A stretch of 21,209 nucleotides of DNA from Candidatus Methylomirabilis limnetica (GCF_003044035.1 NZ_NVQC01000003.1:1-21209); one strand, 5' to 3'. Positions 645 to 19,323 are shown, counted from the first letter of the stretch. A program made the numbers and translations. Notes: generated by a model from the letters alone, not told the origin.

Positions 645-949
645 TATATAGCCCATTGAAATTGAGTGGAGACCAGCGTTACCAGTGGTAGTTTGAACTG
701 GGTCCGGGGAGTGAAGAAAGACTTGACAGATATTCCAAGGGCGATATACGATGAATTCTCCTAGAGGTAGGTTTCTGAAAGAGCGATCTTCTTGGAGAAA
801 TAACGCCCTGAATCTTAACCCTGTTGCGTGAGTGGCGACAAAGGAGGTGAGAATAGGCGCCAACAGAAAGCCTGGAGATGTGTGATGTCAAGGGCAGCAC
901 GGTCTACGTTATCTAATAAATTGATCAGAGCGTAAGGAGGAAGAATCGA

Positions 950-1726
950 ATGGCACAGTATAAGACTGAAGCGGTATCGGGTAAAAGTGCCGAGTCAGTA
1001 GAGAAGATGTTCGGCTGGGGTACCTGGTGGAAATGCATGATACCTATCAGCATCTTCTACGTCATGATTCGGATCTACCAGCAGTACTTCTCGTGGTCGA
1101 AAGGCCTCGACTTCTTTTCTGAGGACTTTCGGGTCTATTGGTGGAACATGCTCATCGGTGAGTTGATCATCGAGGCGGCGGTACTGACCTTCACCTTGGG
1201 CTACATCTGGAAGACCCGCGACCGGAATCTGGATCGAATCACGCCGGAGGAGGAACTCAGGCGGTTCTGGGGTCTCGGAATGTGGATCGCGACGTACGCC
1301 TGGGCCGTCTATTGGGGTGCCAGCTTCTTTACCGAGCAGGACGGGACGTGGCACCAGACGGTGATCCGCGATACGGACTTTACGCCGAGCCACATCATCG
1401 AGTTCTATCTCAGCTACCCGATCTACATCATTATCGGGATTAACTCCTACATGTGGGCCAGGACCCGTATCCCCATGTTTTCCAAGGGGCACTCCCTGCC
1501 CTTCATGCTGACGGTCGGCGGTCCTGCGATGATCTTTGTGAATGTGGCGCTGAACGAGTGGGGCCACACCTTCTGGATCATGGAGGAGTTGTTTGTGGCA
1601 CCGCTCCATTGGGGCTTTGTCACGCTCGGCTGGTGCCTTTTTGGGGTATATGGCATAGCGCTGACAATTACTCCGCGGGTCTTTGAGTTGATCAAGATCT
1701 GCAGCGGTAACAAGTCTACTGCGTGA
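950..1726 (+). CDS. pmoC: particulate methane monooxygenase subunit C
   Basis: 258 aa. SD AAGGAGG at 934-940, ATG at 950. Polytopic membrane protein with the PmoC/AmoC hallmark stretches RDTDFTPSHIIEFYLSYP and NEWGHTFWIMEE. It is the first gene of a C-A-B ordered cluster. Confidence 0.95.
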   Translation: MAQYKTEAVSGKSAESVEKMFGWGTWWKCMIPISIFYVMIRIYQQYFSWSKGLDFFSEDFRVYWWNMLIGELIIEAAVLTFTLGYIWKTRDRNLDRITPEEELRRFWGLGMWIATYAWAVYWGASFFTEQDGTWHQTVIRDTDFTPSHIIEFYLSYPIYIIIGINSYMWARTRIPMFSKGHSLPFMLTVGGPAMIFVNVALNEWGHTFWIMEELFVAPLHWGFVTLGWCLFGVYGIALTITPRVFELIKICSGNKSTA

Positions 1727-1783
1727 CGAAACTCGGTAAGGATCGTTTGTTGAGGATCCTCGAAGTCCACAAGTCCAAATAGT

Positions 1784-1812
1784 GGAGGGGGGTGGCGTTC
1801 TTGCCCCCCTCC
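1784..1812 (+). promoter_or_regulatory. GC-rich stem-loop in the pmoC-pmoA intergenic spacer (possible attenuator, processing or stability element)
   Basis: GGAGGGGGG (1784-1792) pairs with CCCCCCTCC (1804-1812) around an 11-nt loop, followed only by a weak CTTT. It sits 24 nt upstream of the pmoA ATG. Confidence 0.4.
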
Positions 1813-1835
1813 CTTTGAGAGAGAGGAAGAGCTAT

Positions 1836-2567
1836 ATGGCGCTCTTGACACAACAGCAAGCCCTGAGCCTGGAGCGGAAATTCGATATTATCGTAATAAT
1901 TGCTGCGTTCACGGGCACGGTCGCGGGGTATCATATTCACCAGATGCTGACCGTCGGCGACTGGGACTTTTGGCTGGACTGGAAGGATCGGCGTTGGTGG
2001 GTCACGTTGACGCCGATCCTGTTGATCACCTTTCCCGCGGCAACGCAATATTTCATGTGGGAGAAGATGCGTCTTCCGATCGGCGCCACATTTTGCGTGA
2101 TGACGCTTCACTTCGGGCAATGGATGAATCGGGTCTTTAACTTCTACATGTGGGCCTGGTTCCCGGTTAACTTTGTCACTCCGAGTCTTATGATACCCAG
2201 CGCGATCTTTCTGGACGTGACGCTGATGATGACAGGAAGCTACATGTTCACGGCGTTGTTCGGCGGTATGGGGTGGTCCCTGTTATTCTATCCGGCGAAC
2301 TGGACTTGGCTCGCCCCGTTTCACTTGGCAGTGAAGCATCCAAGCGGGCCGCTCATGTCGATTGCCGATCTGATGGGGATGGAGTATGTTAGGTCTGCCA
2401 CGCCTGAATACATCAGGATCATTGAGCGTGGGACGCTACGGACATTCGGAAGGGATGTCACGCCAGTCTCCTCTTTCTTCGCTGGGTTCATCAGCGGGAT
2501 AGTATACCTCTGGTGGGTTTGGATGGGGAAGGTGATCAGCAGGCCGGTATTCCTCTCGCGTACGTAG
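1836..2567 (+). CDS. pmoA: particulate methane monooxygenase subunit A
   Basis: The ORF-track start at 1782 lies inside the intergenic hairpin. The ATG at 1836 follows GAGAGGAAG (1821-1829) and gives 243 aa. The protein contains GDWDFWLDWKDRRWWVTLTPI, the signature PmoA/AmoA stretch. Confidence 0.95.
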   Translation: MALLTQQQALSLERKFDIIVIIAAFTGTVAGYHIHQMLTVGDWDFWLDWKDRRWWVTLTPILLITFPAATQYFMWEKMRLPIGATFCVMTLHFGQWMNRVFNFYMWAWFPVNFVTPSLMIPSAIFLDVTLMMTGSYMFTALFGGMGWSLLFYPANWTWLAPFHLAVKHPSGPLMSIADLMGMEYVRSATPEYIRIIERGTLRTFGRDVTPVSSFFAGFISGIVYLWWVWMGKVISRPVFLSRT

Positions 2568-2687
2568 CTGTTATTGATGCTGGCCCGTGGTGGGTTCTCG
2601 AAGCAAGCCTGCAAGGCAAGAGAAGACTCCACGTGGCGCTGCAATGCGAATGAATTGACTCTTACCCACGAACCTGGGAGGATAACA

Positions 2688-3956
2688 ATGAGGATCGGAC
2701 GAGCGGCGTTGTCGGCGATCGTGCTTGGAGCGATCGCCGTGTCCGCGGGAACGGTATGGGCCCATGGCGAGCGGTCGCAGGAGCCGTTTCTGCGGATGCG
2801 CACGATAACGTTTTACGATACTGAGTGGTCGAAATCGAAGGTGAAGCCCGGCGAGACGATGGATCTGACGGGGAAATTCCATACGTTCAGTGAATGGCCG
2901 CAGGCCGTCAATACCCCAGAGTCGATCTTTCTCCACTTCTCGGTACCAGGGCCATCAATGCTTAAGAAAGAGGCGTGGATGAATGGCATGCCCGTCATCA
3001 ACGCTACCAGTACGATTCTTGGCGGAGACTATGATTATAGAATGGTCCTTATGGGGCGGGTCACCGGGACTTATCATGTTCACCCGATGGTAAATATTGC
3101 GGGTGGAGGGCCCCTGGTCGGTGGAGGCCAATTTGTCACTGTCGATGGCGATTGGACTGGCTTTCAAAATAACGTCGCGACCATCGATGGCTCGACAGTG
3201 AACATGGAAAACCACGGGCTGGGAAGGATCATCGGCTGGTGGGGTTTTTGGGTCGTCATAGGTCTGTTCTGGCTGTTGTATTGGATAAAGAGACCATTTT
3301 TGCGGCGTGTCTTCCAGGTTGGGGTTGTGCCTGAGGAGCAGCTTGTGAGCTCAGGCGATAAAACGGTGGCGGTCGTTCTCATGGTCGCGACAGTCCTCAT
3401 CGTGTCCATTGGCTACGTCACGACCAACAGCGCCTATCCCATCACGATTCCGCTGCAGGCCGGTAGGATGGATACTCCTGAACTAGCGCCCACCACGGCG
3501 TTTACGCCGTACGCCCATGCCACCATAAAGGCTAGGCCGATAACCGCGATCTATACAGTGCCTGGGCGTTCTCTTGGGATGCTGGTAGAGATCAAGAACG
3601 GTTCGAACAGGCCTCAGCAGTTGGGGGGATTCATCACGGCCAACCTGCAGTTCAGGGAGCCCAGCATGTTCCCAGACTCGCGGCTCAAGGTCAAGGTGGA
3701 GCCTAACGGCCCCATCGCTCCTGGCCAGACAGTACAGCTAACGATTGATGCTACTGACGCGGAATGGGAGTACCAGAGGTTGGCCGAGTTGATCTATGAC
3801 TCAGATAGCCGGTACGGCGGACTCCTTGAGTTCTTTGATGCAGACAAGAACCGGCAAATTGTCGAGGTCGGCGGTCCTGTGATCCCGTCCTTTGAGGGCG
3901 GTGCCACTGCCATGACAGGCGGCGGCAAATGGCGACCAACTACGCAGTACAAATAA
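2688..3956 (+). CDS. pmoB: particulate methane monooxygenase subunit B
   Basis: The ORF-track start at 2574 has no SD. The ATG at 2688 follows GGGAGGA (2676-2682) and gives 422 aa. Signal peptide MRIGRAALSAIVLGAIAVSAGTVWA, mature N-terminus HGERSQEPFLRMRT (the N-terminal His of the PmoB copper site), and an HxH in GTYHVHPMVN. Two central TM helices are followed by a soluble C-terminal domain. Confidence 0.93.
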   Translation: MRIGRAALSAIVLGAIAVSAGTVWAHGERSQEPFLRMRTITFYDTEWSKSKVKPGETMDLTGKFHTFSEWPQAVNTPESIFLHFSVPGPSMLKKEAWMNGMPVINATSTILGGDYDYRMVLMGRVTGTYHVHPMVNIAGGGPLVGGGQFVTVDGDWTGFQNNVATIDGSTVNMENHGLGRIIGWWGFWVVIGLFWLLYWIKRPFLRRVFQVGVVPEEQLVSSGDKTVAVVLMVATVLIVSIGYVTTNSAYPITIPLQAGRMDTPELAPTTAFTPYAHATIKARPITAIYTVPGRSLGMLVEIKNGSNRPQQLGGFITANLQFREPSMFPDSRLKVKVEPNGPIAPGQTVQLTIDATDAEWEYQRLAELIYDSDSRYGGLLEFFDADKNRQIVEVGGPVIPSFEGGATAMTGGGKWRPTTQYK

Positions 3957-3976
3957 CGGGAAGGAGACACGAAATC

Positions 3977-4054
3977 ATGGAAGCAGCCGGGATGAACATA
4001 GCTCTGCTGGTAATGCTGCTCATTGTCATTATGACGTTGGTGAACCAGGCTTAA
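3977..4054 (+). CDS. 25-codon micro-ORF encoding a single hydrophobic helix (MEAAGMNIALLVMLLIVIMTLVNQA); not in the ORF track
   Basis: ATG at 3977, 21 nt after the pmoB stop, preceded by GGGAAGGAG (3958-3966). Stop TAA at 4052-4054. The operon terminator hairpin follows it rather than following pmoB. Confidence 0.4.
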   Translation: MEAAGMNIALLVMLLIVIMTLVNQA

Positions 4055-4062
4055 GCGGGTGC

Positions 4063-4127
4063 GTGAGGGTCCCATCCTTTGAGATTCCAGATTCGGGATT
4101 TCAACGGGTGGGACCCTCACCCTTTTC
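4063..4127 (+). terminator. candidate intrinsic terminator of the pmoCAB transcription unit
   Basis: GTGAGGGTCCCA (4063-4074) pairs perfectly with TGGGACCCTCAC (4109-4120), extendable by about 3 bp, followed by CCTTTTC. The loop is large (28-34 nt), which lowers confidence. Confidence 0.5.
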
Positions 4128-4198
4128 AAGCGACGCCACCTCAGCAGGTGGTGGGGAGCTTTAATAAGAAGGCAAGTAGAAGGAAGTAGGATAGGGGA

Positions 4199-4963
4199 AT
4201 GAGGGAGTTGGCTTCGATTGGGCTGGCAGTGTTGTTGGTGGCATCCGGGGTATCGCAGGCATGGGCTCACGGTGGTGGTGGCGCTGGTGGAATTACAGAG
4301 GGTGATCTTTGCTCGGTAGAAAAGGGACATCAGCTTGTCCACTTCAGCGCCTATCAGCATGTGTCTGCAGGGCCGGCATCTCAGCTTGCTCGGCTCAAGG
4401 ATGCGGATCTGAAGCGGTACGTTGATGCGCTAAAAGAGGAGTTTCGGTCCTACTGCCGAGATATCCCAAGTACGGGAAAGACGACACTGACCTTTGATCT
4501 CATTAGCGATACTCTTCGAACGATTCCGATGGCTGTCCGGGTCGTTGAGGTGACGAATGACGGCGAGTCCGGAACAGTCCTGGAGATCCCGCAGCAAGTC
4601 TACCCCACTGGCGTGGTGAGAGCGGAGGCGGAGTTTACTAAGGCCGGGAAATATCGGGCTATCGTCGAGCTTCAGGAGCACCATGCAGACGGATCCCCAC
4701 TCGTGGGTGCTGACGACGCGGTAAGCCATAGTCACGATGGGACTGGGGCGGCAAATCAGAAGCACGGAACCGCTGGAGAGGAAGAGGCGTATCATGCCTA
4801 CGATTCTAACTTTAGCTTCCCCTTTACAGTCGGACTGAAGACAGCCAGGTCTGTTGGTGGTTCTTCGTCCATGATGAGCAATCCGGCTATTCTGGTGATG
4901 ACCATAGCAGGTATTGGTATCGGTACTGTGCTCTATGTAAGGCGAAAGAATAAAGCGGCCTAA
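4199..4963 (+). CDS. secreted, C-terminally membrane-anchored His-rich protein of unknown function
   Basis: 254 aa. Signal peptide MRELASIGLAVLLVASGVSQAWA with an AXA cleavage motif, so the predicted mature N-terminus is HGGGG. There is a His/acid-rich patch (EHHADGSPLVGADDAVSHSHDG...HGTAGEEEAYHAYD) and a C-terminal TM helix followed by a basic tail (NPAILVMTIAGIGIGTVLYVRRKNKAA). I recognised no family motif. Confidence 0.7.
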   Translation: MRELASIGLAVLLVASGVSQAWAHGGGGAGGITEGDLCSVEKGHQLVHFSAYQHVSAGPASQLARLKDADLKRYVDALKEEFRSYCRDIPSTGKTTLTFDLISDTLRTIPMAVRVVEVTNDGESGTVLEIPQQVYPTGVVRAEAEFTKAGKYRAIVELQEHHADGSPLVGADDAVSHSHDGTGAANQKHGTAGEEEAYHAYDSNFSFPFTVGLKTARSVGGSSSMMSNPAILVMTIAGIGIGTVLYVRRKNKAA

Positions 4964-4990
4964 ACGGACCACATAAGAGCGTCTGGGAAA

Positions 4991-5036
4991 AAATTGACCC
5001 TCTCACGATGGGATGGACACTCGTGAGAGGGTCAAT
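4991..5036. terminator. 16-bp perfect hairpin, candidate bidirectional terminator between convergent units
   Basis: AATTGACCCTCTCACG (4991-5006) pairs with CGTGAGAGGGTCAATT (5021-5036) around a 14-nt loop. The A6 run at 4985-4990 provides a U-tract for minus-strand transcripts. On the plus strand only AATTGTTA follows. Confidence 0.55.
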
Positions 5037-5424
5037 TGTTAGCTATAAGCGCCAGCGCACATACAACTAACTGCGGAGAATCTTTAAGGGCAGTTTCCTT
5101 TAATAGCGCCCCAGGCCTTTCCGCATTCGTCAGACGCACATACTTTGTCTCTCTTACATGTCTTAACTTTTTCCGTATCCGTTGTGCCTGAATAGTGCGC
5201 TTGGGGAGAAACATCGTTAAGGCCATTGTCCAATCCGTCCACTGGAGAACATCCGCACGGACCTGCCGTCGACTTATAGGTCCAGCCTTGTGCTGAGCCA
5301 CCGCAAACTCACCTGTTTACAGCTCCCACCATCTCTTCCTTGCCCCCCAAGTGTCATGCGCCTAGTTGCAGTAGCGTGGGAGCTATTGGGGGGGCCGGCA
5401 GCAAAAAATATAACAGGCTGCGAG

Positions 5425-7362
5425 CTAGGCGATACCTCCCGCCAGACCGGTGGTGGTAGGTGGTACCGGTGCCGAAGGGGAGCCTCCTGGCGCAGCAGCT
5501 TCGGTGCCTGCCTCAGCGCTGGTAGGTCGTGATGCGTCCAGCGCCACAACCTTCCCCGCCATGACGTCGTCCAGTTCCTCCGCAAATAGGGTTTCGCGAT
5601 CTAGCAGGGCTTTTGCCACGCGCTGCAGCTTCTCGCGATTAGCCTCGATCATCTGATAAGCTACCGTGTAGCACTCATCGGTGATGCGGCGAACCTCCTG
5701 GTCGATCTGGTAGGCGATCTCTTCACTATAGTTTCGGCTGTCGATCATATCTCGACCAAGAAAGACGGGCCCACCCGACCTACCCAGCGTGACGAGACCG
5801 AGCTTTTCCGACATGCCGAAATTAGTCACCATTCGGCGAGCCATGCCAGTTGCCTGCTCAAAGTCATTTGAGGCTCCGGTGGTAACCTCGCCGAAAATCA
5901 AAGACTCAGCGGCGCGGCCACCCATGCCAACGCTGATTTCCGCCAGTAGTTCTGATCGCGTACGAGTGTAGCGGTCCTCCGGCGGGGCCCCCATCACATA
6001 GCCGAGTGCCATCCCGCGCGAGACGATCGTCACCTTGTGGGGCGGATCAGCATTCGGGATGAGCTTGCGCAGGATGGCGTGCCCGGCCTCATGGTAGGCC
6101 ACCATCTCACGCTCCTTTGGTTTCAGGGCACGACTGCGTCGCAAGGGTCCCGCAATTACGCGCTCGACTGCCTCGTCAAAGTCGGACATACTGACTTGAG
6201 TCTTGTTGTGCCTGGCGGCAAGGAGCGCGCCCTCGTTTACCACGGCGGCAAGATCTGCCCCAGAGAAGCCCGGGGTCTGCTTGGCGAGCGTGTCGACGTT
6301 GACGTCAGGTGCCATTGGTATTTCGCGCATGTGTACCTGCAAGATAGCCTTGCGACCCTTGCTGTCGGGGTTATCCACGATGATCCGCCGGTCAAAACGC
6401 CCAGGGCGCAACAGGGCAGGATCGAGGATGTCTGGCCGGTTAGTGGCGGCAATCACGATAATCCCGATATTGTTCTCGAAGCCGTCCATCGCGACCAGCA
6501 GTTGGTTCAAGGTCTGCTCGCGCTCATCGTTTCCGCCGCCGAGGCCCGCCCCACGGTGGCGGCCCACCGCGTCGATCTCGTCGATGAAGACCAGGCAAGG
6601 GACGTTCTTCTTGGCTTGCTCGAACAGATCGCGGACGCGGCTGGCGCCCACCCCCACAAAGACCTCCACGAACTCAGATCCCGAGAGCGAGAAGAACGGA
6701 ACGCTGGCCTCCCCGGCAACCGCCTTAGCAAGAAGCGTCTTCCCGCAGCCTGGTGGCCCCACAAGCAATAGCCCCCTGGGGATCTTCGCGTGCAGCGCCT
6801 GAAACTTTTGGGGGTGCTTCAAGAACTCAATGACCTCCAACAGCTCCTCCTTCGGCTCTTCCTCTCCGGCCACGTCTGCGAAGGTAACATTGGGCTTAGT
6901 CGCGTCGTGCAGTTTCGCCTTGGATTTACCGAACGACATTGGGCCGCCGCCGCCCCCCCCCATCTGCGAGGCCCGACGGCTCATCATCACGAACAGGCCG
7001 ATAATCACGAGGAACGGCAAGAAGTTGAACAGAAGGCCAAGCCAGATGGAGCCGCCGGCTTGCGCCTCGATCGCGAAGCGAATCCCCTTCTTTTTCAATA
7101 GCTCTTGCAGGTCTCCCGTCGCCTCCTTACTGTAGATCGTCCGAAGGTGCTGCCCCTCAGTGACATGGAAGTAGATAGTGTGATTACTTTCATCGAAGAT
7201 CACCGTCCCGGCGATCTGTCCTTCTTCCACCAAGTTCATGAGGTCGCTGAAGATGACCTGGGTGGAGGCTTTTTTGGAACTCGAGAAGATCGGAATCAGG
7301 ATCACGGCGACCACAAGGAACAAGGCGAACACGCTCGCAGCCCATACGTAACGCTTGTTCAC
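5425..7362 (-). CDS. ftsH: ATP-dependent zinc metalloprotease FtsH
   Basis: N-terminal TM helix, Walker A GPPGCGKT, Walker B VFIDEIDA, zinc site HEAGHA. The ORF-track start at 7398 is a TTG. A GTG at 7362 lies 8 nt downstream of AAGGAGG (complement of 7371-7377) and gives MNKRYVW..., 645 aa. I prefer this start, but it is not certain. Confidence 0.93.
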
Positions 7363-7624
7363 GGCAATAACCTCCTTCGTGTTATCCCGACATACCAAAG
7401 CCGGGCGTCAAGCATCCGGGACGTTATGCCGGACACATGAAACATCTTATGGCCAAGGTCTATCATCCGACTCTCACTGCACGCATCAACCAATCGTTGC
7501 CTTCTTGTCGACATAGCCACGTTTATGGCGAATTACTACCCTGCGCAACTAGCTTCGCCGAGTCTTACAGGAACCACGTTTAGGTTAAATCAAGCATATG
7601 AGTTTGTCAAGCCCAACTTCTGTG

Positions 7625-7767
7625 CCCAAGAACAGTGATAGAAAAATTGTCATTGCGAACGAAGTGAAGCAATCTCGCCTTATTGCACTGAGATTGCCAC
7701 GCACCCTACGGGTACTCGCAATGACGGGAAGAATCGAGCGGTTGCGAAGTCTATCGCTGTTCCTGGG
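7625..7767. repeat. palindromic MITE/REP-like element, copy A (143 nt)
   Basis: Near-identical to 15211-15352. Terminal inverted repeats are CCCAAGAACAG(T/C)GATAG and CTA(T/G)CGCTGTTC(C/T)TGGG. Nested internal inverted repeats are GTCATTGCGA/TCGCAATGAC and GCAATCTC/GAGATTGC. Confidence 0.8.
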
Positions 7768-8109
7768 TCTATGGTTTGTAGAGTCGAATGGTCTGGGGTC
7801 ATGGGAGGGGGCGCAGCGAATGGGGCGACGCAAGCTGATCTGGGGGGGTAAGCCGGAGGAGCGCGGGATCTCAAAGGGACTGTGTCTCTGCAGCTCGCAA
7901 CGGCGCAGCGAGCCTGCGCCTGTGACGGTACGCCTGATCGGTCGGATTGTCAGCGCTTCCTTCGAACTCCAGTGATGACCGAGAGAGGAGACTTTCGTGC
8001 CGACGTCAGGGATTGCGAGGAAGGGGGTGATGGTGGGCACGAAGCGGCGTGAAAATATGGAGAGCTGGACGACCTCTATTCGCTATGGCCCTAAAGGTCG
8101 ATCAATGGC

Positions 8110-8364
8110 TTACTGTAGCTTGCCGAATTCTTTCAGAGTAGAGGCGACTACTAAGGTTTCAGATGTGAATAGGTCTGATCCAGCCATATGCTTCATGATT
8201 TTGTTTGCTGCATCTATATCCTTGGCTTCCCATTCGAAAACCAGATCATATTGGCCATAGGTGACATAAGCGGACTTCATCCCCTCGTAACAGGCGGCAG
8301 GAAGATCGTTTTCCAGCTTGGACCAAGCCCCTGGTCTTACCTTGGCTAATGTGAGGAACTTCAT
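8110..8364 (-). CDS. GYD-domain protein
   Basis: 84 aa. YVTYGQYDLVFEWEAKDIDAANKI...TSETLVVASTLKEF fits the GYD-family pattern (GxYD ... EA.D..A ... T.TL). Its ATG overlaps the stop of the upstream gene (ATGA at 8361-8364). Confidence 0.65.
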   Translation of the reverse strand: MKFLTLAKVRPGAWSKLENDLPAACYEGMKSAYVTYGQYDLVFEWEAKDIDAANKIMKHMAGSDLFTSETLVVASTLKEFGKLQ

Positions 8365-8855
8365 GATTGGCTACCCTCCCTTATTCGACTATGGACGGTG
8401 AGGTTCGTGTGGCTGGCGTTGTCGCTCGACGGGATTACTCGTAGAGCCTCCCCGAACTGGATAATCCGGCCTTGGAGGATTGAGTAGTGGCGGTACCTCC
8501 CAGGCATGTGCGAACTCACCGAGGCGATCGCCACGACCAGCAAAAGAAGGGGCAGGCGATAATCCCAGGCATAAGGAACAGCCAGGAGAACCAGCAGTTT
8601 GATGAGTACCGCTGCACCTTTGCCCATGAAGAGCCAGTGCAGTCCGATAGTAGAGATCTCCAGCACCATCAGACCAATACCGCTCGCGATCGTCATGTAC
8701 AGGGCCGGCAGCAAACGGTCTGCGTCGATCGCGAACGTATGCCCCCCCAGCAGGATGCCGAAGCCCACCAGATGTAGGGTTCGTAGCAGAAGCGACAGAC
8801 CCCGCTTTCGCGAATAGCCCTGCGCCATCTTCGCAGTGTCTGTCAGTTGTAGCAT
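8361..8855 (-). CDS. hypothetical integral membrane protein (about 4 TM helices)
   Basis: 164 aa. ATG at 8855 with GGAG about 10 nt upstream. Hydrophobic helices LHLVGFGILLGG, ALYMTIASGIGLMVLEI, AAVLIKLLVLLAV and LPLLLLVVAIASV. It lies 32 nt downstream of the porin gene and is translationally coupled to the GYD gene. Confidence 0.6.
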   Translation of the reverse strand: MLQLTDTAKMAQGYSRKRGLSLLLRTLHLVGFGILLGGHTFAIDADRLLPALYMTIASGIGLMVLEISTIGLHWLFMGKGAAVLIKLLVLLAVPYAWDYRLPLLLLVVAIASVSSHMPGRYRHYSILQGRIIQFGEALRVIPSSDNASHTNLTVHSRIREGSQS

Positions 8856-8887
8856 CTGGTGAGCTCCGGCTGAAGCCTGCCATCAAT

Positions 8888-10384: not shown

Positions 10385-11107
10385 GACTCCCCCTCTGCGT
10401 TTTAAGGTTAATCACCGCACTCCCAAATTCGGAGCGCTTTACCGGTGCGGGGCGCTGCGCTGACCCCGCCCTGAACACGCCATCCCACGCCGAGTAAACG
10501 TGAGCTACAGGCCCTCCAGCGGGAGCTGTCGGATGGTAAGTAACTCCCGCTGCGTAGCGGCGACAATATCGCTCAGCTTGAGCCCTCTGTCAAGGATTTT
10601 CTTCAGCCGCATGGATGGCACGTTTCGGTTGAAGACGATCGGCGGTAATGGCAGTGTGCGCGCAGGGCGGCACGCCCACTTACGGGATGGCCGCATGCGG
10701 ATGAACGCGAAGAGACGAGATGCTTCAGACCATTGAGTCCACAGGGGGTTCATTTTAGACGCCAGAGGGCGCCATCCGACTCCTGTATCAGCGCCGGTTA
10801 CCGGCGGAGGAGGTGCAGGCCGAGTGTCGCGATGTGGCGGCCGTGGCGCATGCGATCCGGACTAAGCAGATCCACTATCGAGATCAGTGCGGCAGCACGC
10901 ACGGTGCAAGCCAGGGATAACGGATGACGCGTGAGGGAACTCCGCGGTGAGCGTAACTAACCGCACGCTGATACTGGGCGGGACCGGGAGTACCGCCGCC
11001 CCTGTAAGGCCGTGGAGCTTGTACAGGCACTTATCGCGGCGGGGCCGGGTTCGGGTCGAGGACTGAGGGCGCGGATTGGTCCTCTATTGTTCGTACCCTT
11101 TTTCAGC

Positions 11108-11136
11108 TTGACAGGTATTACTGATGACTGTACATT
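11108..11136 (+). promoter_or_regulatory. candidate sigma-70 promoter placed to give a leaderless mRNA for the PAS-LuxR regulator
   Basis: TTGACA (11108-11113), a 17-nt spacer, then TACATT (11131-11136). The ATG at 11143 lies 7 nt after the -10 hexamer, and no SD is visible. Confidence 0.4.
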
Positions 11137-11142
11137 TGCGTC

Positions 11143-12030
11143 ATGGCGCACCCAGGCACCGGATCGAAACGGTTGGCGCGGACCCGGCGGACGGATCGTC
11201 GGCAGGAGACCGGAGTTCGTGCAGGTGATGCGGTCACCCCCCGTGTCGACGAGGAAGGCGAGCATCGGTCTGTCGTTGATAAAAAAGCCTCGCAAGACGA
11301 GCCAGGAGGCACACAGCCTGCGGAATCACTGAGGGCTGCCTTCAGGCTTTTCGAGGAGACGGCCGATGGGGTATTTATCAGTTCACCGTCGGGTGAGATT
11401 CTGTTCTGCAACCGGGCCGCTGAAACCATCCTGGAAGCTTCCGCGCAACAAGTCGTCGGGCAGGAGTGCCGCGAATTCTTCAACGGCCGTGACGCTAACG
11501 GTAATCAGCTCTGTCAGTGGCCTTGCCCCCTCAAGATGTCGTTGAACCGCGGAGACCTGATCCAGCATTTTGAGATGGCTACTCGGACGAGGACGGGCAA
11601 ACCGCTGTGGATCGATGTGAGCTGTGTTGCCCTTCCCTGTGACGACAACCAGCCTCCGACGGTCGCCCACCTCTTCCGTGATGTCACTGCGGCACACCAG
11701 CTTGAGGTTCTCGTTCGCCAACAACTGGCTCAGACTCAACTCGCGACGAGCGAGGATGTTCTGCCCCCCATCGTTGAACTGACTCGGCGGGAACTGCAGG
11801 TCGTCACCCTGATGCGGACTGGCGCAACCACGGCGGCCATCGCGGAGCAGCTTTTCATCAGTAAAACTACGGTGAGAAACCACATCCAGAACATCTTCAG
11901 CAAGCTCAAGGTTCATTCTCGGCTGGAGGTCGTGGCCTACGTGAATGAGATTACGCGGCGAGAGCCCACGACTCGCGAAAAGGCTGGACCGGCGCCGGGA
12001 GCCACGAAGGAACCCCCCAAGGCAGCGTGA
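11143..12030 (+). CDS. PAS-domain / LuxR-type (GerE) HTH one-component transcriptional regulator
   Basis: 295 aa. The PAS-like core runs from FEETADGVFISSPSGEILFCNRAAETIL to LFRDVTAAHQLE. The C-terminal LuxR HTH is LTRRELQVVTLMRTGATTAAIAEQLFISKTTVRNHIQNIFSKLKVHSRLE. The start codon is uncertain because the N-terminal ~55 aa are low-complexity and basic. Confidence 0.85.
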   Translation: MAHPGTGSKRLARTRRTDRRQETGVRAGDAVTPRVDEEGEHRSVVDKKASQDEPGGTQPAESLRAAFRLFEETADGVFISSPSGEILFCNRAAETILEASAQQVVGQECREFFNGRDANGNQLCQWPCPLKMSLNRGDLIQHFEMATRTRTGKPLWIDVSCVALPCDDNQPPTVAHLFRDVTAAHQLEVLVRQQLAQTQLATSEDVLPPIVELTRRELQVVTLMRTGATTAAIAEQLFISKTTVRNHIQNIFSKLKVHSRLEVVAYVNEITRREPTTREKAGPAPGATKEPPKAA

Positions 12031-12074
12031 TAGCCGTGATCAAATTGATTAAGTCAACCGCTGAAGCTGCGGAC

Positions 12075-12180
12075 CCGGGGAAGGTAAAATCGTTTAGTGT
12101 GATGAATATGCATCACAAGATTGAGTTAATTGCATGATTTATGGGTCCAACTGGAAAAGCGTATATACGAGATTGTATTG
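12075..12180 (+). repeat. nod promoter/operator module, distal copy (a)
   Basis: About 105 nt, directly repeated at 12217-12320 with a period of about 142 nt. Contains the palindrome TGTGATGAATATGCATCACA (12098-12117) and a weaker promoter-like ATTTAT-N19-TATATA. Confidence 0.65.
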
Positions 12181-12216
12181 GCGTGATCGACTGGGTTGAC
12201 CGTTGGAGCTGTAGCC

Positions 12217-12320
12217 TCGGGGGAGGTAGAATCGTTTAGCGTGATGAATATGCATCGCAATATTGAGTCAATTGCATTATTTACAAGTCCCATAGGGCTA
12301 GTATATTAAGGTATTGTGGG
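12217..12320 (+). promoter_or_regulatory. nod promoter/operator module, proximal copy (b), with a candidate sigma-70 promoter for the first nod gene
   Basis: Operator GATGAA-TA-TGCATC (12243-12256). -35 TTTACA (12280-12285), a 16-nt spacer, and -10 TATATT (12302-12307). The predicted start near 12314 implies a leader of about 230 nt. Confidence 0.45.
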
Positions 12321-12545
12321 ATCGGAACTTAAGCGTCGCAAGTTGATTTGATTACAGGCGTTACACGGGCTACCGGGGGTCGCAGCATCGCCACAGAGGC
12401 GATCTTCCCCATGAACCTTACGATAACGAAGGGAGGTGAGTCGGCAAGCAGAGAATAAGTAGCGCAACGGGGCACCGACTGGATGGATCGCAACGACAAC
12501 AGGAGAGTGGCCACCTACGTTATAGGGAGAGCCACAGGAGGAAAC

Positions 12546-14978
12546 ATGAGTCCTAATCCTAACGAAGCTGTCAGCAAGGCGAAGATGCACAGGACCTTCG
12601 CACAGGCCCTATTAATTAAGAAGTATTGGTGGCTTCATGCTTTGATCGTTACGGCAATCAGCGTCATCGGTCTCATTGCTCTCGGCGTCTGGACCTACGC
12701 GGGCGCTCCCCCGCTGGTGAATTTTGTGTCGTCCACTACTGGGGAGGTTGTAATCCCGGAGTGGGAAATGAATCGTGGGAAGCAAGTGTTTTTCCTGAAG
12801 GGCCTGATGACGTATGGCTCCTTCTGGGGGGACGGAGCCGAGCGCGGACCTGATTTCACCGCTGAGGCCCTCCACCGCACGTCCCTCTCTATGGGCACGC
12901 ACTATAGAAATGAGATCGCGAAGACACGGGCTGTGACCCAAGACGACGAGGACATGATCAAGACGAGGGTGGCACGAGAGATCCATACGAACCTGTATGA
13001 CTCGGCGGCTGGCGTCATTCGTCTTAACGATGCCCAGATTTTTGCGTATCATGAGTTGAACACTCACTACACCCGGATGTTTACGGATCGAACCTACGTA
13101 GAAGCATTCCAGAATGGCAGAATTGAGAGCTACATCAAAAACCCAGCAGACATCAAGGCCTTGACGGGCTTCTTCTTCTGGGGCGGCTGGGTTTCCGGGG
13201 CGAATCGACCGGGTGAGGTCTACAGCTACACCCACAACTGGCCATACGATCCAGCGGTGGGTAACTTCCCGACGTACGCGACGTATATCTGGAGCTTCCT
13301 TTCGATCTTCGTGCTGTTCCTTGGCACCATGCTCGTCCTGTACGTTTACGGGGAAATGAAGACCCTGCCAGGCGAGCCGTTCAATGGGCGGGATTGGTCG
13401 CTGACCACGGTTGACCTTGAAAACAAGGGCGACGCCTATGTTCGTCCCACCCAGCGTGCGACGTATAAGTTCTTTGCTTTTGCCGTGATCCTGTTCCTGG
13501 TCCAGATCCTGGCAGGTATCATCAGCGCAGAAGATTTCATTGGTGGTGGGCCGGTTGATGCGATGTTGGGCATGGTTGGGCTCACCATCCCCTTTAGCGT
13601 TGCCAGAGGCTGGCATCTTATCGTCCAGATCTACTGGTTCTTTATGGCCTGGGTTGGCTACACCATCTTCTTCCTGCCCAGGATTTCGAAGGTCCCGAAC
13701 GGACAGAGGTTCCTGATCAACCTGCTCTTTACCCTGTGTGTTATCGTCGGGGCAGGCGCTCTGTTTGGTATCTATCTCGGACATACGGGCTTTTTTGCCA
13801 ATGACGAGATGGCCTACTGGTTCGGGAGTCAGGGTTGGGAGTTCCTGGAGCTCGGGCGATTCTGGCATGTTCTCATGCTGATCTCGTTCTGTCTCTGGGT
13901 CTTCATCATCTTCCGCGCCGTGAAGCCGTGGCTCACGAGCCAGAATATGTGGTCCGTACCGGCTTGGCTGTTCTACGGCAGCGCGATCATGGTGCTGTTC
14001 CTGTTCTTCGGGATGTTTATGACCCCTCAGCAGAACTTCGCCATCTCCGACTATTGGCGGTGGATGAACATCCACATGTGGGTTGAGGTAACCTTCGAAG
14101 TCTTCACCACCTGTATCGTTGGGTACATGCTGGTGCAGATGGGTCTGGTGAACCGGGCCATGGCCGAGCGGGTGATCTTCCTGGCGGTCATGATGTTCCT
14201 CGTCACCGCCCTGATCGGTATCTCTCACAACTTCTACTGGATCGCCAAGCCAACAGGGATCATTGCACTGGGCAGCGTCTTCTCCACCATGCAGGTGTTG
14301 CCTCTGCTCTTGATCACCCTGGATGCCTGGAAGATGCGGACGGAGCGGGTCAAGGCCCATGAGGCTGTTGCCGAGGGCAAGCAGCGCTTCGTGATGGACG
14401 GCGTTTGGACGTTCATCCTTGCCGTCAACTTCTGGAACATCTTCGGCGCAGGCGTGATGGGCTCAATGATCAACCTGCCCATCATCAACTACTATGAGCA
14501 TGGCACCTACGTCACCAGCAACCATGCCCATGGCGCCATGTTCGGCGTCAAAGGCAACATCGCAATTGGCGGTATGCTGTTTGCCTGCCAGCACCTGTTC
14601 CAGCGCTCTGCCTGGAATGAGAAGCTGATCAAGACCGTGTTCTGGTCGCTGCAGATCGGCTTGGTAATGATGATGATGATGGATATGTTCCCAGTCGGTC
14701 TGTATCAGGTTGCGGCCATCATCCAGCACGGCTTCTGGTATGGTCGGCAGCAGTCGTTCATTACGAATGAAGTGTGGCACACCCTGACCTTGCTGCGCGC
14801 GATCGGTGGGGCGGTATTCCTCTTCGGAGGCGTCTTGCCGCTTACGTGGTTCATTCTGTCCAGGGGGACCCGGATGGTCCGCGAGGCCGCCACAGTTGAG
14901 GAAGGCGAGTGGACAATCTACGATAAGGAGAAGGCGAAGGAGCGGGAAGCTTGGGCCGCTTCTGACGAAGCTTTCTAG
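12546..14978 (+). CDS. nod: qNor-family haem-copper oxidase with substituted catalytic and quinol sites; putative nitric oxide dismutase, copy 1
   Basis: ATG at 12546 after AGGAGGA (12536-12542); the ORF-track start at 12483 has no SD. 810 aa. N-terminal TM helix plus a periplasmic domain without CXXCH, carrying YGSFWGDGAERGPDFTAEALH, followed by the NorB core. NIHMWVEVTFE and NHAHGAMFG are retained. GISHNFYW replaces GHH(Y/F)(Y/F)W, and FSTMQVLPL replaces FSxLE.xP. Confidence 0.88.
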   Translation: MSPNPNEAVSKAKMHRTFAQALLIKKYWWLHALIVTAISVIGLIALGVWTYAGAPPLVNFVSSTTGEVVIPEWEMNRGKQVFFLKGLMTYGSFWGDGAERGPDFTAEALHRTSLSMGTHYRNEIAKTRAVTQDDEDMIKTRVAREIHTNLYDSAAGVIRLNDAQIFAYHELNTHYTRMFTDRTYVEAFQNGRIESYIKNPADIKALTGFFFWGGWVSGANRPGEVYSYTHNWPYDPAVGNFPTYATYIWSFLSIFVLFLGTMLVLYVYGEMKTLPGEPFNGRDWSLTTVDLENKGDAYVRPTQRATYKFFAFAVILFLVQILAGIISAEDFIGGGPVDAMLGMVGLTIPFSVARGWHLIVQIYWFFMAWVGYTIFFLPRISKVPNGQRFLINLLFTLCVIVGAGALFGIYLGHTGFFANDEMAYWFGSQGWEFLELGRFWHVLMLISFCLWVFIIFRAVKPWLTSQNMWSVPAWLFYGSAIMVLFLFFGMFMTPQQNFAISDYWRWMNIHMWVEVTFEVFTTCIVGYMLVQMGLVNRAMAERVIFLAVMMFLVTALIGISHNFYWIAKPTGIIALGSVFSTMQVLPLLLITLDAWKMRTERVKAHEAVAEGKQRFVMDGVWTFILAVNFWNIFGAGVMGSMINLPIINYYEHGTYVTSNHAHGAMFGVKGNIAIGGMLFACQHLFQRSAWNEKLIKTVFWSLQIGLVMMMMMDMFPVGLYQVAAIIQHGFWYGRQQSFITNEVWHTLTLLRAIGGAVFLFGGVLPLTWFILSRGTRMVREAATVEEGEWTIYDKEKAKEREAWAASDEAF

Positions 14979-15013
14979 TCTGAGGATCTAGGTAGGTAAG
15001 TCACACTGCACTT

Positions 15014-15063
15014 CGATACCCCCCAGTACAGCAGAAATGCTGTGCTGGGGGGTATCGCTTTTC
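15014..15063 (+). terminator. strong intrinsic terminator of nod copy 1
   Basis: 20-bp stem, CGATACCCCCCAGTACAGCA with TGCTGTGCTGGGGGGTATCG (one G-U pair), a GAAA tetraloop, then CTTTTC. An identical copy lies at 18372-18421. Confidence 0.85.
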
Positions 15064-15210
15064 TGGCAGGTAGTTGCGCGTGCGAGGTGATGGCTTCGTT
15101 CCGAAAGGCGCTGGACAGACCACCAACGCGACCGTTTTTACCCCTTCCAGTCTCCGCCTCCACTCCCACATTCCGCCCACCCGGGCTACACTCCCCTCCA
15201 GCTCCACCCA

Positions 15211-15352
15211 CCCAAGAACAGCGATAGAAAATTGTCATTGCGAATGAAGTGAAGCAATCTCGCATTGTTGTACTGAGATTGCCGCGCACCCTGCGGGTAC
15301 TCGCAATGACGCAAGGAATCGCGTGGTTGCTAGGTCTAGCGCTGTTCTTGGG
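15211..15352. repeat. palindromic MITE/REP-like element, copy B (142 nt)
   Basis: Same element as 7625-7767, in the same orientation. Terminal inverted repeats CCCAAGAACAGCG and CGCTGTTCTTGGG are perfect over 13 nt. It lies in the spacer between the two nod units. Confidence 0.8.
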
Positions 15353-15576
15353 ATCCATCTGACGCTTGACACTAGGGGCCAGGCTTCTACTGCCTCAAAG
15401 CATAACGCCGACTCTCTGCTCTCGCTCAGCGATAGCGGCTCATTTCGGGGTGTTTATAGGTTACCAGAGTGGATGCACGGCTACTCCTCTACTGGTAGAC
15501 CTTTGACCCTTGTGTGACATCGAGGGGCTCACTCAGCAAGCGGGCGCTGAGGCCGTTCACTGACCAGAATCCGAGA

Positions 15577-15665
15577 GAGTGATGCATTTGCATCGTAAAT
15601 TATGTCAATCACCTCATTTACAGGCTGTACTGAGGGTCATAAATTGCCATTGAGAGGTGTTGGGG
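15577..15665 (+). promoter_or_regulatory. nod promoter/operator module, copy (c), with a candidate sigma-70 promoter for the second nod gene
   Basis: Operator GATGCA-TT-TGCATC (15580-15593), a perfect 6-2-6 inverted repeat. -35 TTTACA (15617-15622), a 17-nt spacer, and -10 TAAATT (15640-15645). The sequence is collinear with module b. The leader is about 245 nt. Confidence 0.45.
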
Positions 15666-15897
15666 TGATTATTGAGGAGGTCTTCACCATGAACTTCACG
15701 GTAGGGGTCGACACGAAGAGCAAGCAGGGCGTCGGGTCACCGGCTGGCCGACCAGGCGTGTGCCGTCGAGCTTGCGCCCTGCAGGCTGATCGCGAAGCCC
15801 GGGCGCCCCCGACGGCCGGGGCAACAACAGACGCGGGATCGCAATAACATTGAGAGTGGCCACCTAAGTTATAGGGAGGGCCATGGAGGGGTGTAAG

Positions 15898-18336
15898 ATG
15901 AGTCCTCATCCTAGTACACCTGTCAGCAAGGCGAAGGTCTACAGGACCTTCGCGCAAGCCCTATTAATTAAGAAATATTGGTGGCTTCATGCTTTGATCG
16001 TCGGCCTGATCAGCGTCGTCGGCCTCATCGCTCTCGGCGTCTGGACCTACGCGAGCGCTCCCCCGTTGGTAAATTTTGTGGCGGTATCCAATAGTGGAAC
16101 GGTGGTGATTCCAGAGTGGGAAATCCAGCGTGGGAAGCAAGTGTTTTTCCTGAAGGGCCTGATGACGTATGGCTCCTTCTGGGGAGACGGAGGGGAGCGC
16201 GGGCCGGATTACACCGCCGAAGCTCTGCATCATACTTCCGTGTCCATGAGAAAGTACTATTCGGCCGAGATCGTAAAGAGTCGTCCTCTGACCCAAGACG
16301 ACCTGGGTATGATCGATTCGCGGGTCAAGCGGGAGATTCATACGAATCTCTACGACGAGAAAGCCGGCGTTATTGCCCTTAACGATGCCCAGATTTTTGC
16401 GTACCAGGAGTTGATCACCCATTATACGCGGACGTTTACGGATGCCACCTATGAAGAAGCGTTTATGAAGGGAAGGATCGAAAATCATATCAGCAACCCA
16501 GCAGACCTCAAGGCACTAGCGTCGTTCTTCTTCTGGGGGGGCTGGGTTTCCGGGGCGAATCGACCGGGTGAGGACTATAGTTATACACACAACTGGCCAC
16601 CCGATCAGTCCGTCAACAACTACCCGACGTTCCCGACGTATCTCTGGAGCTTTATCTCGATCTTCGTGCTGTTCGCGGGTACCATGTTGGTCCTATACAT
16701 CTACGGGGAAATGAAGACCCTGCCTGGCGAGCCGTTCAATGGGCGGGATTGGTCGCTGACCACGGTTGACCTTGAAAACAAGGGTGACGCCTATGTTCGT
16801 CCCACCCAGCGTGCTACGTATAAGTTCTTTGCCTTTGCCGTGATCCTATTCCTGGTCCAGATCCTGGCAGGTATCCTGAGCGCAGAGGATTTCGTCGGTG
16901 GGGGACCGGGTAGCTTCCTGGCGACATCGGTATTGGGGTTTACTATCCCCTTCACCGTTACTCGAGGCTGGCATCTTATCGTCCAGATCTACTGGTTCTT
17001 TATGGCCTGGGTCGGCTACACCCTCTTCTTCCTGCCCAGGATTTCGAAGGTCCCGAACGGACAGCGGTTCCTGATCAACCTGCTCTTTACGCTATGTGTC
17101 ATCGTGGGCGCAGGCGCGCTGTTTGGCATCTATTTCGGACATACGGGGTGGTTTGCTAACGACGAGATGGCCTACTGGTTCGGGAGCCAGGGTTGGGAGT
17201 TCCTGGAGCTCGGGCGATTCTGGCATATTCTTATGCTGTCCTCGTTCTGTCTCTGGGTCTTCATCATCTTCCGCGCCGTGAGGCCGTGGCTCACGAGCCA
17301 GAATATGTGGTCCGTGCCGGCCTGGCTGTTCTATGGCAGCGGCATGATGGTGCTGTTCCTGTTCTTCGGGTTGTTCATGACCCCGACGCAGAACTTCGCC
17401 ATTGCGGACTACTGGCGGTGGATGAACATCCATATGTGGGTTGAGGTGACCTTCGAAGTGTTCACCACCTGTATCATTGGGTACATGCTGGTGCAGATGG
17501 GTCTGGTGAACCGGGCCATGGCCGAGCGGGTGATCTTCCTGGCGGTCATGATGTTCCTCGTCACCGCCCTGATCGGCATCTCTCACAACTTCTACTGGAT
17601 CGCCAAGCCAACAGGGATCATTGCACTGGGCAGCGTCTTCTCCACCATGCAGGTGTTGCCTCTGCTCTTGATCACCCTGGATGCCTGGAAGATGCGGACG
17701 GAGCGGATCAAGGCCCATGAGGCCGTTGCCGAGGGCAAGCAGCGCTTCGTGATGGACGGCGTCTGGACGTTCATCCTCGCTGTCAACTTCTGGAATATCT
17801 TCGGCGCGGGCATCATGGGCTCGATGATCAACCTGCCCATCGTCAACTACTATGAGCATGGTACCTACCTCACTGGTAGTCATGCGCATGCCGCCATGTT
17901 CGGCGTCAAAGGCAACATCGCGATTGCCGGTATGCTGTTTGCCTGCCAGCATCTGTTCCAGCGCTCTGCCTGGAATGAGAAGCTGATCAAAACCATATTT
18001 TGGTCGCTGCAGATCGGCTTGAGCCTGATGATAGGATTGGATCTGTTCCCGATCGGTCTGTACCAGGTAGCGACCGTCTTCAAGGAAGGCCTCTGGGCCG
18101 CACGAGCGCAGTCACACGTAACGGATAGCGTGTGGGTTACTTTGACGTGGCTGCGCACGATCGGTGGAGCGATCTTCCTCTTTGGAGGCGTATTGCCGCT
18201 AGCCTGGTTCATTCTGTCCAGGGGAACCCGGATGGTCCGCGAGGCCGCCACAGTTGAGGAAGGCGAGTGGACAATCTACGATAAGGAGAAGGCGAAGGAG
18301 CGGGAATCTTGGGCTGCTTCTGATGAGGCCTTCTAG
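15898..18336 (+). CDS. nod: qNor-family haem-copper oxidase with substituted catalytic and quinol sites; putative nitric oxide dismutase, copy 2
   Basis: ATG at 15898 after GGAGGGG (15885-15891). This start aligns with the MSP... start of copy 1; the alternative ATG at 15883 would add 5 aa. 812 aa. Same motif set as copy 1: NIHMWVEVTFE, GISHNFYW, FSTMQVLPL and SHAHAAMFG. Confidence 0.88.
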   Translation: MSPHPSTPVSKAKVYRTFAQALLIKKYWWLHALIVGLISVVGLIALGVWTYASAPPLVNFVAVSNSGTVVIPEWEIQRGKQVFFLKGLMTYGSFWGDGGERGPDYTAEALHHTSVSMRKYYSAEIVKSRPLTQDDLGMIDSRVKREIHTNLYDEKAGVIALNDAQIFAYQELITHYTRTFTDATYEEAFMKGRIENHISNPADLKALASFFFWGGWVSGANRPGEDYSYTHNWPPDQSVNNYPTFPTYLWSFISIFVLFAGTMLVLYIYGEMKTLPGEPFNGRDWSLTTVDLENKGDAYVRPTQRATYKFFAFAVILFLVQILAGILSAEDFVGGGPGSFLATSVLGFTIPFTVTRGWHLIVQIYWFFMAWVGYTLFFLPRISKVPNGQRFLINLLFTLCVIVGAGALFGIYFGHTGWFANDEMAYWFGSQGWEFLELGRFWHILMLSSFCLWVFIIFRAVRPWLTSQNMWSVPAWLFYGSGMMVLFLFFGLFMTPTQNFAIADYWRWMNIHMWVEVTFEVFTTCIIGYMLVQMGLVNRAMAERVIFLAVMMFLVTALIGISHNFYWIAKPTGIIALGSVFSTMQVLPLLLITLDAWKMRTERIKAHEAVAEGKQRFVMDGVWTFILAVNFWNIFGAGIMGSMINLPIVNYYEHGTYLTGSHAHAAMFGVKGNIAIAGMLFACQHLFQRSAWNEKLIKTIFWSLQIGLSLMIGLDLFPIGLYQVATVFKEGLWAARAQSHVTDSVWVTLTWLRTIGGAIFLFGGVLPLAWFILSRGTRMVREAATVEEGEWTIYDKEKAKERESWAASDEAF

Positions 18337-18501: not shown

Positions 18502-19323
18502 TTACTTGCCCCAGTCGCGGGGGTAGCGGAAGTCGCGGTCGATGGTGCGGGCAGAGATTTTGGCGATGAGAGGCAGGCGCCGCTTGTACTGAGAGGCCTG
18601 GACCTTAGTGAGAACGGCTCTGACGAATCGCTCCTCAAAGCCAGCGGCAATGAGCTCAGAGATTTCGCAACGGCGATCCACCATGAGATAGAGGATCCGA
18701 TCAACCTCCTCGTAGGTAAAGCCAAGTTCCGCCTCGTCGGTCTGCCCAACCCAGAGGTCGCCGCTGGGCGCCTTTCGGACGATGACCTCCGGGATACCCA
18801 TGTGGCGCGCCAAGTGCCGGATCTGGGTCTTATACAGGTCACCCAGGGGATTGATGGCGCTGGCCATGTCTCCATACAGCGTGCCGTATCCCAACAACAG
18901 CTCCGTCTTGTTGCTGGTCCCCAGGACCAGGGCCTTGAGCTTGGCCGAATGATCGAAAAGGATGGTCATCCGCTCGCGGGCCATCTTGTTGCCACGGCGA
19001 ACGTGATCGGATTCCGGGAACCGTTCGAAGTAGGCGTCCACCATCGGCGTAATCTCGATAACGTCAGATTGGATGCCCAGTTGCTTCACCACCAGTTCGG
19101 CGTGCTCCCGGCTCTCCGGACTGCTGGTCCGGTACGGCATCATGAGGGCCCAGACATTCTCGGCGCCGAGGGCCTTGGCCCCGAGATAGGCGGACAGTGC
19201 TGAATCCACCCCGCCGGAAAGCCCAACCACGATACGGCTGAACCCGGTCTTTCGGACCTCGTTGGCAATGAATCCAGTCAGGATATGTTGGACGAATTCG
19301 CAGTGTAAAGAGAGACCGATCAC
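18502..19323 (-). CDS. nadE: NAD+ synthetase (synthetase subunit)
   Basis: 273 aa. PP-loop motif GLSGGVDSA. The GTG start overlaps the stop of the upstream gene (GTGA at 19320-19323). Confidence 0.88.

Follow-up and report, generated by a model that had tools for sequence, protein, structure and literature searches.

Whether an oxygen-consuming enzyme and its putative oxygen source are encoded close together because that closeness was selected, or because a gene order was inherited, is the question raised by contig NZ_NVQC01000003.1 of Candidatus Methylomirabilis limnetica (GCF_003044035.1). This contig, analysed over its whole length of 21,209 nucleotides (nt) and referred to here as the window, carries a pmoCAB operon for particulate methane monooxygenase (pMMO) and two nod-type genes for putative nitric oxide (NO) dismutases. 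A preliminary description had read the pair as a co-selected functional module. We found it probable that they are instead two neighbouring, independent transcription units of the published pathway, whose closeness reflects a gene order inherited within the genus and not selection for it. The pairing of pMMO with a putative NO dismutase is itself an already-known defining feature of nitrite-dependent methane oxidation in NC10 bacteria, and published work on M. oxyfera, M. lanthanidiphila and M. limnetica has already set out the intra-aerobic model, a pair of nod paralogs and one pmo operon. Among the modest additions made here, the order of this neighbourhood proves stable within the genus although its two units are wired separately.

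Arrangement and predicted promoters of the two units

The window is a complete contig of the published draft genome. Open reading frames (ORFs) of at least 80 amino acids (aa) were screened with Pfam and NCBIfam, and start codons were assessed by their ribosome-binding sites and by the protein lengths of relatives. Loci fetched for comparison carry L numbers. The features of the window are listed below.

1-474, plus strand: 3' end of a sigma-54 enhancer-binding protein gene (Pfam AAA_lid_14 and HTH_8, an AAA lid and a Fis-type helix-turn-helix)
627-646, plus strand: sigma-54-type -24/-12 element TTTGGCATCATCCTTGCGTA, about 320 nt upstream of pmoC, putative promoter
723-752, plus strand: sigma-70-like TTGACA-N18-TACGAT upstream of pmoC, candidate alternative or second promoter
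950-1726, plus strand: pmoC (AmoC, E = 1e-96)
1836-2567, plus strand: pmoA, 243 aa, ORF from 1782 (AMO, E = 1e-95)
2688-3956, plus strand: pmoB, 422 aa, ORF from 2574 (Monooxygenase_B, E = 8e-121)
4199-4963, plus strand: pmoD-family gene, 254 aa, with signal peptide, cupredoxin-like periplasmic domain and C-terminal transmembrane helix
5425-7398, minus strand: ftsH (TIGR01241, E = 1e-245)
8110-8364, minus strand: small GYD-like gene (GYD, E = 3e-5, under the Pfam cut-off), a position also filled in L081, L088, L106 and L107
8361-8855, minus strand: gene for a 164-aa protein with no family match, conserved in L019, L091, L094 and L105
8888-10384, minus strand: outer-membrane protein of the phosphate-selective porin O/P family (Porin_O_P, E = 4e-19)
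11143-12030, plus strand: PAS-LuxR one-component regulator with a GerE helix-turn-helix (Pfam PAS_9 and GerE)
12044-12307, plus strand: two tandem nod1 promoter modules, predicted from a 105-nt direct repeat and a promoter scan
12546-14978, plus strand: nod1, 810 aa, putative NO dismutase, ORF from 12483 (NorB_cytochrome_c-like and COX1)
15014-15057, plus strand: intrinsic terminator after nod1, with a 20-bp stem and T-rich tail
15579-15645, plus strand: predicted nod2 promoter module, with palindrome GTGATGCATTTGCATCGTAA at 15579-15598 and TTTACA-N17-TAAATT at 15617-15645
15898-18336, plus strand: nod2, 812 aa, putative NO dismutase, ORF from 15883, 85% identical to nod1
18502-21028, minus strand: nadE, carbon-nitrogen hydrolase and methyltransferase genes (Pfam), used as a background-synteny control

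All pmo and nod genes were found on the plus strand, and the distance from the pmoB stop codon to the nod1 start was 8,590 bp, which confirms the earlier placing of pmoCAB (950-3956) and the two nod-type genes (12546-18336) on one strand with a gap of about 8.5 kb. One transcript is nevertheless impossible because four opposite-strand genes (ftsH, the GYD-like gene, the 164-aa protein gene and the porin gene) separate the two units. The terminator after nod1 and the lack of shared cis-elements also set the locus apart from a single operon. Only housekeeping-looking and regulator genes had been seen in the interval, a reading that calls for one correction: its first gene is pmoD, which encodes a copper protein associated with pMMO. 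The others are the four minus-strand genes and the PAS-LuxR gene. It had also been stated that the window holds no other denitrification gene and no soluble methane monooxygenase (sMMO) gene, and this held true among the ORFs of at least 80 aa, where no match to nirS, nirK, cNor or qNor proper, nosZ or sMMO was encountered. Without nirS as a source of NO, the window is not a self-sufficient cassette, and the suggestion that it offers a compact pathway for transplanting was dropped; in M. oxyfera, nirS is found in the Damo_2408-2415 cluster.

The proposal that each unit has promoter architecture of its own was well founded, in that each is associated with distinct conserved cis-elements and with an adjacent regulator gene. 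Upstream of pmoC, the box TTTGGCATCATCCTTGCGTA shows two mismatches to the sigma-54 consensus TGGCAC-N5-TTGCW. It forms a conserved island in L081, L091, L094 and L096 and was also encountered upstream of the orphan pmoC in L093; this position and phylogenetic footprint suggest a sigma-54 promoter. Nearer to pmoC, the TTGACA of the sigma-70-like element is likewise conserved in relatives.

The nod genes are preceded by different elements. The two nod1 modules combine a palindrome, GTGATGAATATGCATC (12099-12118 and 12241-12260), with a small palindrome, ATTGAGTCAAT, and a -35-like TTTAC(A/G), and the proximal -35/-10 pair reads TTTACA-N16-TATATT at 12280-12307. The nod2 upstream region holds a single palindrome and a sigma-70-type module. 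It was noted that the 20-mer palindrome occurs at three sites in the window, all of them upstream of nod1 or nod2 (chance expectation 0), and that it was not found upstream of pmoC. The modules are conserved in L002, L019, L021, L080, L081, L090 and L094-L097, where each lies ahead of its gene, by approximately 290-390 nt for nod1 and 320-335 nt for nod2. The two nod1 modules are 142 nt apart in the window as against about 70 nt in M. oxyfera-like relatives. The terminator that follows nod1 folds into a hairpin of 20 perfectly paired bp with a T-tail (-46 kcal/mol, z = -7.5). FNR/CRP was considered as the binder of the palindrome and rejected, as the spacing is TGAT-N8-ATCA and not TTGAT-N4-ATCAA. 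A 9-mer common to the pmoC and nod leaders, CTACGTTAT, was rejected as a shared element, being expected by chance and not conserved in relatives.

The promoter architectures are separate and therefore point to two regulons rather than one module. The first unit would comprise pmoCAB and pmoD behind the sigma-54 activator gene and the conserved -24/-12-type box. The second would consist of the PAS-LuxR gene, nod1 and nod2, in that order, with a separate palindrome and sigma-70-type promoter for each nod gene, and the strong terminator would set nod1 apart from nod2. The adjacent regulators would act on the pmoC and nod promoters, and the two units would be coupled only through their products, with Nod making O2 from NO and pMMO consuming it as in the published model.

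Gene order in NC10 and in other phyla

We examined whether this arrangement is kept in related genomes, as the preliminary description had called for. Synteny within NC10 was anchored on pmoD, as the NC10 contigs recovered in a scan with Nod1 were too short or ended before pmo. Nine NC10 lineages were informative (the window, L081/82/92, L090, L094, L095, L096, L105, L106 and the exception L088), and in eight of these the order pmo(C)AB-pmoD-ftsH-(small gene)-porin-PAS/LuxR-nod was found on one contig, with PmoB identity down to 71%. The same block was present in the M. oxyfera-like L080 and L097, whose contigs are cut within pmoD, and L091 and L107 were consistent with the shared order as far as their contigs reach. 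The M. oxyfera-like L080 and L002 share the window order pmoD-ftsH-porin-PAS/LuxR-nod-nod, and L002 differs in having c-type cytochrome genes and one membrane protein gene between nod2 and nadE (12119-15481), which the window lacks. Published locus tags give a comparable picture for M. oxyfera, with nod at Damo_2434/2437 and pmo at Damo_2448-2451 (pmoB/A/C Damo_2448/2450/2451; a gap of 11-17 tags), and for M. lanthanidiphila, with nod at mela_02433/34 and pmoB/A at mela_02441/42 (7-9 tags). Both species share the genus and the genes of the window, including paired nod paralogs approximately 84-85% identical.

The flanking genes served as a comparison. It was noted that ftsH and the porin gene are present in every NC10 case, and that nadE, the hydrolase gene and the methyltransferase gene follow nod in the same order in L002. 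Because these unrelated neighbours, and likewise the sigma-54 activator gene, are kept equally well, the pmo-nod linkage is indistinguishable from genus-level collinearity. Together with the minus-strand genes, the terminator and the differing cis-elements, this speaks against the co-selected module that had been proposed.

We consider it unlikely that the proximity itself was selected, that is, that pmoCABD and nod stay within about 10 kb of each other, on either side of ftsH and a porin gene, so that their complexes are made and inserted in the same membrane patch and internally formed O2 reaches pMMO before it is lost or respired. Such selection would account for the same order in eight independent NC10 lineages with PmoB identity as low as 71%, and both units adjoin regulators with putative redox- or gas-sensing domains. 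In a genome of about 2.75 Mb, this one pre-specified pair would lie so close by chance with P ~0.006; among approximately 10 key pathway loci, however, the chance that some pair would lie this close is about 0.25. The equal conservation of unrelated flanking genes, the differing cis-elements and a strand layout that excludes co-transcription all argue against it, as do pmo genes without nod in L088 and in a published Methylomirabilis genome, and the nod cassette without pmo in many phyla.

Within NC10, the sole exception was L088 (5522-12654), which carries pmoB-pmoD-ftsH-GYD-porin followed by IF-2B-like, TPR-SLT, coaBC and UDG genes, the regulator and nod being absent. Similarity between L088 and L107, which come from the same sample, stops in the porin-regulator intergenic region. 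Simple loss of the regulator-nod cassette was rejected, since the downstream genes of L088 follow nod in no other locus; the contig reflects a genuine rearrangement or else a chimeric assembly. It fits the report of a 95%-complete Methylomirabilis metagenome-assembled genome (MAG) that expresses pmoCAB and has no annotated nod (DAMOB2, PMC10130057), and it may correspond to that MAG. At least one NC10 contig with the pmo side only, matching this report, raises the question of where the O2 would come from.

Outside NC10, the picture was different. The Nod1 scan, with one genome per species, yielded 79 loci from many phyla, and none of these (0/79) had a copper monooxygenase gene, as a PmoA, PmoB or PmoC homologue, within 10 kb. 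The recurrent neighbours of nod were genes for a MORN-repeat protein, LuxR-type regulators, cytochrome b561, a DUF3470 ferredoxin, NnrS and a NirK-like protein. In 26 of these 79 loci the opposite strand carries a MORN_2 gene upstream of nod. In 11 non-NC10 loci a LuxR-type gene immediately precedes nod, and the LuxR-nod pair recurs there without pmo, so that the nod unit travels with a LuxR-type regulator of its own in other phyla. As a separate observation, L038 carries a canonical qNor (His-His-Glu) approximately 4 kb downstream of nod.

Several points weigh against the reading of two independent units joined by inherited synteny. Conservation of the order across 71-99% Pmo identity is also what selected linkage would give, and L088, the only locus to break the order, is a single metagenome contig that may be a chimera. 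Across the whole window the sigma-54 pattern gave 11 matches with 9.8 expected, which is no enrichment, and the promoter and regulator assignments are drawn from conservation. Finally, no biochemical demonstration of the reaction 2 NO -> N2 + O2 by Nod was found in the literature searched.

Regulator genes beside the two units

The activator fragment at the start of the window (1-474) was found to be 85% identical to residues 397-550 of the protein encoded by L096:4437-6098, in which the domain order is Fer2, Sigma54_activat and HTH_8. The full-length activators of both L096 (4437-6098) and L091 (4594-6270) begin with a plant-type 2Fe-2S ferredoxin domain, Fer2 (CX4CX2C...C). As a sensor in an enhancer-binding protein, such a 2Fe-2S domain is unusual; redox state, O2 or NO may be its signal. 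The same activator gene is present upstream of pmoC in L081, L091, L096 and L105. The NC10 operon differs from proteobacterial pmoCAB(D) in having a 2Fe-2S activator gene and a putative sigma-54 promoter upstream.

On the nod side, the PAS-LuxR gene adjoins nod in every NC10 locus. Its PAS domain contains invariant Cys109, Cys124, Cys128 and His142, which are shared by the NC10 proteins, by that of a Bdellovibrionota MAG (L003, 55% identical) and by that of a gammaproteobacterial MAG (L035, 29%). These conserved residues suggest a metal, Fe-S or cofactor sensor site, and we propose from the conserved neighbourhood that the PAS-LuxR protein binds the nod palindrome and regulates nod.

A broader scheme can be put forward tentatively, and we regard it as possible rather than probable. 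In this scheme, two sensor-regulators are encoded beside their targets: the 2Fe-2S activator would control pmoCABD and the orphan pmoC-pmoD pair through the conserved -24/-12 box, and the PAS-LuxR protein, with its Cys3His motif, would control nod1 and nod2 through the palindrome GTGATGCATATGCATC. Across phyla, the PAS/LuxR-nod pair would behave as a mobile cassette, and the two-regulon island of NC10 would balance NO-derived O2 against methane oxidation. In the literature, of which coverage was partial, we found no treatment of the pmo-nod linkage, of the palindrome upstream of nod, of the PAS-LuxR protein or of the activator with its 2Fe-2S domain, so that this is weak evidence of novelty. 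The conserved promoter elements and regulator domains provide concrete targets for studying how internal O2 production is controlled.

Proteins of the two units

The gene identities given in the preliminary description were borne out by the Pfam and NCBIfam matches, by the copper ligands of the monooxygenase and by the full Nod signature. The order C-A-B was found at 950-3956, and each of the three Pfam matches had E < 1e-95. The pmoA start at ATG 1836 has a ribosome-binding site and yields the 243-aa length of its relatives, and ATG 2688 is the likely start of pmoB. PmoB aligned over its full length with the solved PmoB of M. capsulatus (3RGB; 349 bits) and keeps the CuB ligands, a mature N-terminal His and an HxH motif (AHGERSQ and YHVHPM, compared with AHGEKSQ and WHVHTM in 3RGB). 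PmoC matched the solved PmoC 4PHZ with 304 bits, and in that alignment it keeps the metal-ligand motifs D-x3-H-x12-H and N-x3-H-x13-H (EQDGTWH...PSHIIEF and NEWGHTFW...PLHWGF). We take the Asp/His/His set to be the CuC ligands and the Asn/His/His set to be the CuD ligands. The NCBIfam models that scored above cut-off bear the name 'bacterial ammonia monooxygenase' (AmoA/B/C_BACT), and the TIGR CH4/NH3 models for the A and B subunits scored under cut-off on the window proteins. Methane as the substrate is accordingly an assignment from the identity of the organism and the literature, and not from sequence models.

The gene after pmoB encodes a 254-aa protein identical to PTL37245.1 (CLG94_00105), for which no Pfam or NCBIfam match was found. 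It has 70 homologue clusters, and every meaningfully named source among them is NC10 or Methylomirabilis. In the AlphaFold2 model of this protein (mean pLDDT, the predicted local distance difference test score, of 58), only the beta-sandwich core is confident (above 83), and the best Foldseek match of the model in the Protein Data Bank (PDB) was the PmoD soluble domain 6CPD (E=1.4e-7, 30% identity). The signal peptide, a periplasmic cupredoxin domain with two conserved Cys, the C-terminal transmembrane helix and a position adjoining pmoCAB or a lone pmoC, all of which were found, characterize the PmoD/AmoD family. Residues H24, C38, H48 and C86 are invariant in NC10 PmoD, an invariant His is the first mature residue, and a His-rich linker precedes the transmembrane helix.

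Compared with Methylocystis sp. Rockwell PmoD (6CPD) and proteobacterial pmoCAB(D), the C-A-B order is the same and the copper ligands are retained. NC10 PmoD differs in reading C-x9-H-xn-C with Leu/Phe/Ile at the position of the CuA Met ligand, and it belongs to the Cx9HxnC class and not to the CuA-forming Cx7MxHxnC class. The M. oxyfera ortholog DAMO_2446 (254 aa) has been catalogued as pmoD of class Cx9HxnC (supplement, PMC6189053). A reading of the 254-aa protein as a new NC10-specific pMMO partner was rejected, PmoD being already catalogued for M. oxyfera. A pmoD paralog was also encountered 3' of the orphan pmoC in L083 and L093, an orphan pmoC-pmoD arrangement that has been recorded for DAMO_2340 as well. 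The operon is better named pmoCAB plus pmoD.

The nod1 start at ATG 12546 is preceded by an AGGAGG ribosome-binding site, and 15898 is the likely start of nod2. Nod1 and Nod2 of the window are 85% identical, and the M. oxyfera paralogs are 84% identical to each other (Ettwig 2012). As an observation apart, L105:11642-14720 holds a single nod, 91% identical to the window Nod2, with nadE directly after it; either copy number varies or the assembler collapsed both paralogs. A PDB search returned no Nod structure, the best match being the G. stearothermophilus quinol-dependent NO reductase qNOR (3AYF), with which Nod shares the fold and domain order, a cytochrome c-like domain without heme c and a heme-copper oxidase subunit I core. 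In the alignment to 3AYF, both paralogs carry H560N, in which an FeB-coordinating His is replaced by Asn (IGISHNFYW compared with IGIGHHYYY), the active-site change E581Q (STMQVLPL compared with SALEVIPL) and the quinol-site changes H328E, E332G and D746G, whereas H508, E512, H559 and the heme histidines are retained (3AYF numbering). These substitutions mark the putative Nod clade and are those that define putative NO dismutases in Ettwig 2012. The His-Asn-Gln signature was found in all Nod-type genes of the fetched loci (85/85), which have lost the quinol site and one FeB His.

These data bear on whether Nod produces O2 at all. If the nod-type proteins release no O2 and act, for example, in NO detoxification or in NO reduction through some other electron route, the neighbourhood would have no producer-consumer meaning. 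Reviews and recent papers call the function unproven, and no purified Nod is known to show dismutase activity; the closest PDB structure is an NO reductase, and the MAG that expresses pmoCAB without nod would also fit (PMC10130057). We give this alternative only a slight chance. The lost quinol site and FeB His in both paralogs and throughout the fetched genes run against ordinary qNor chemistry, and nod ranks with the most strongly expressed genes of M. oxyfera (Ettwig 2012) and of other enrichments. Isotope tracing, moreover, reportedly showed in 2010 that O2 was formed from nitrite via NO, with little N2O.

Minor features were noted around the nod genes. An Rfam scan of the window gave no match, and the long nod and pmoC leaders fit no known RNA family. 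Between the terminator of nod1 and the predicted promoter of nod2, repeats at 15200-15360 (plus strand) without an Rfam match may form a structured RNA or constitute a small repeat element; they include nested inverted repeats (15211-15228 with 15335-15352) that enclose GTCATTGCGA...TCGCAATGAC. The last 60 or so nt of the nod1 and nod2 leaders (12485-12545 and 15836-15897) are near-identical, including GAGAGTGGCCACCTA(C/A)GTTATAGGGAG(A/G)GCCA, and therefore either the duplication took in the translation-initiation region or this region is under constraint.

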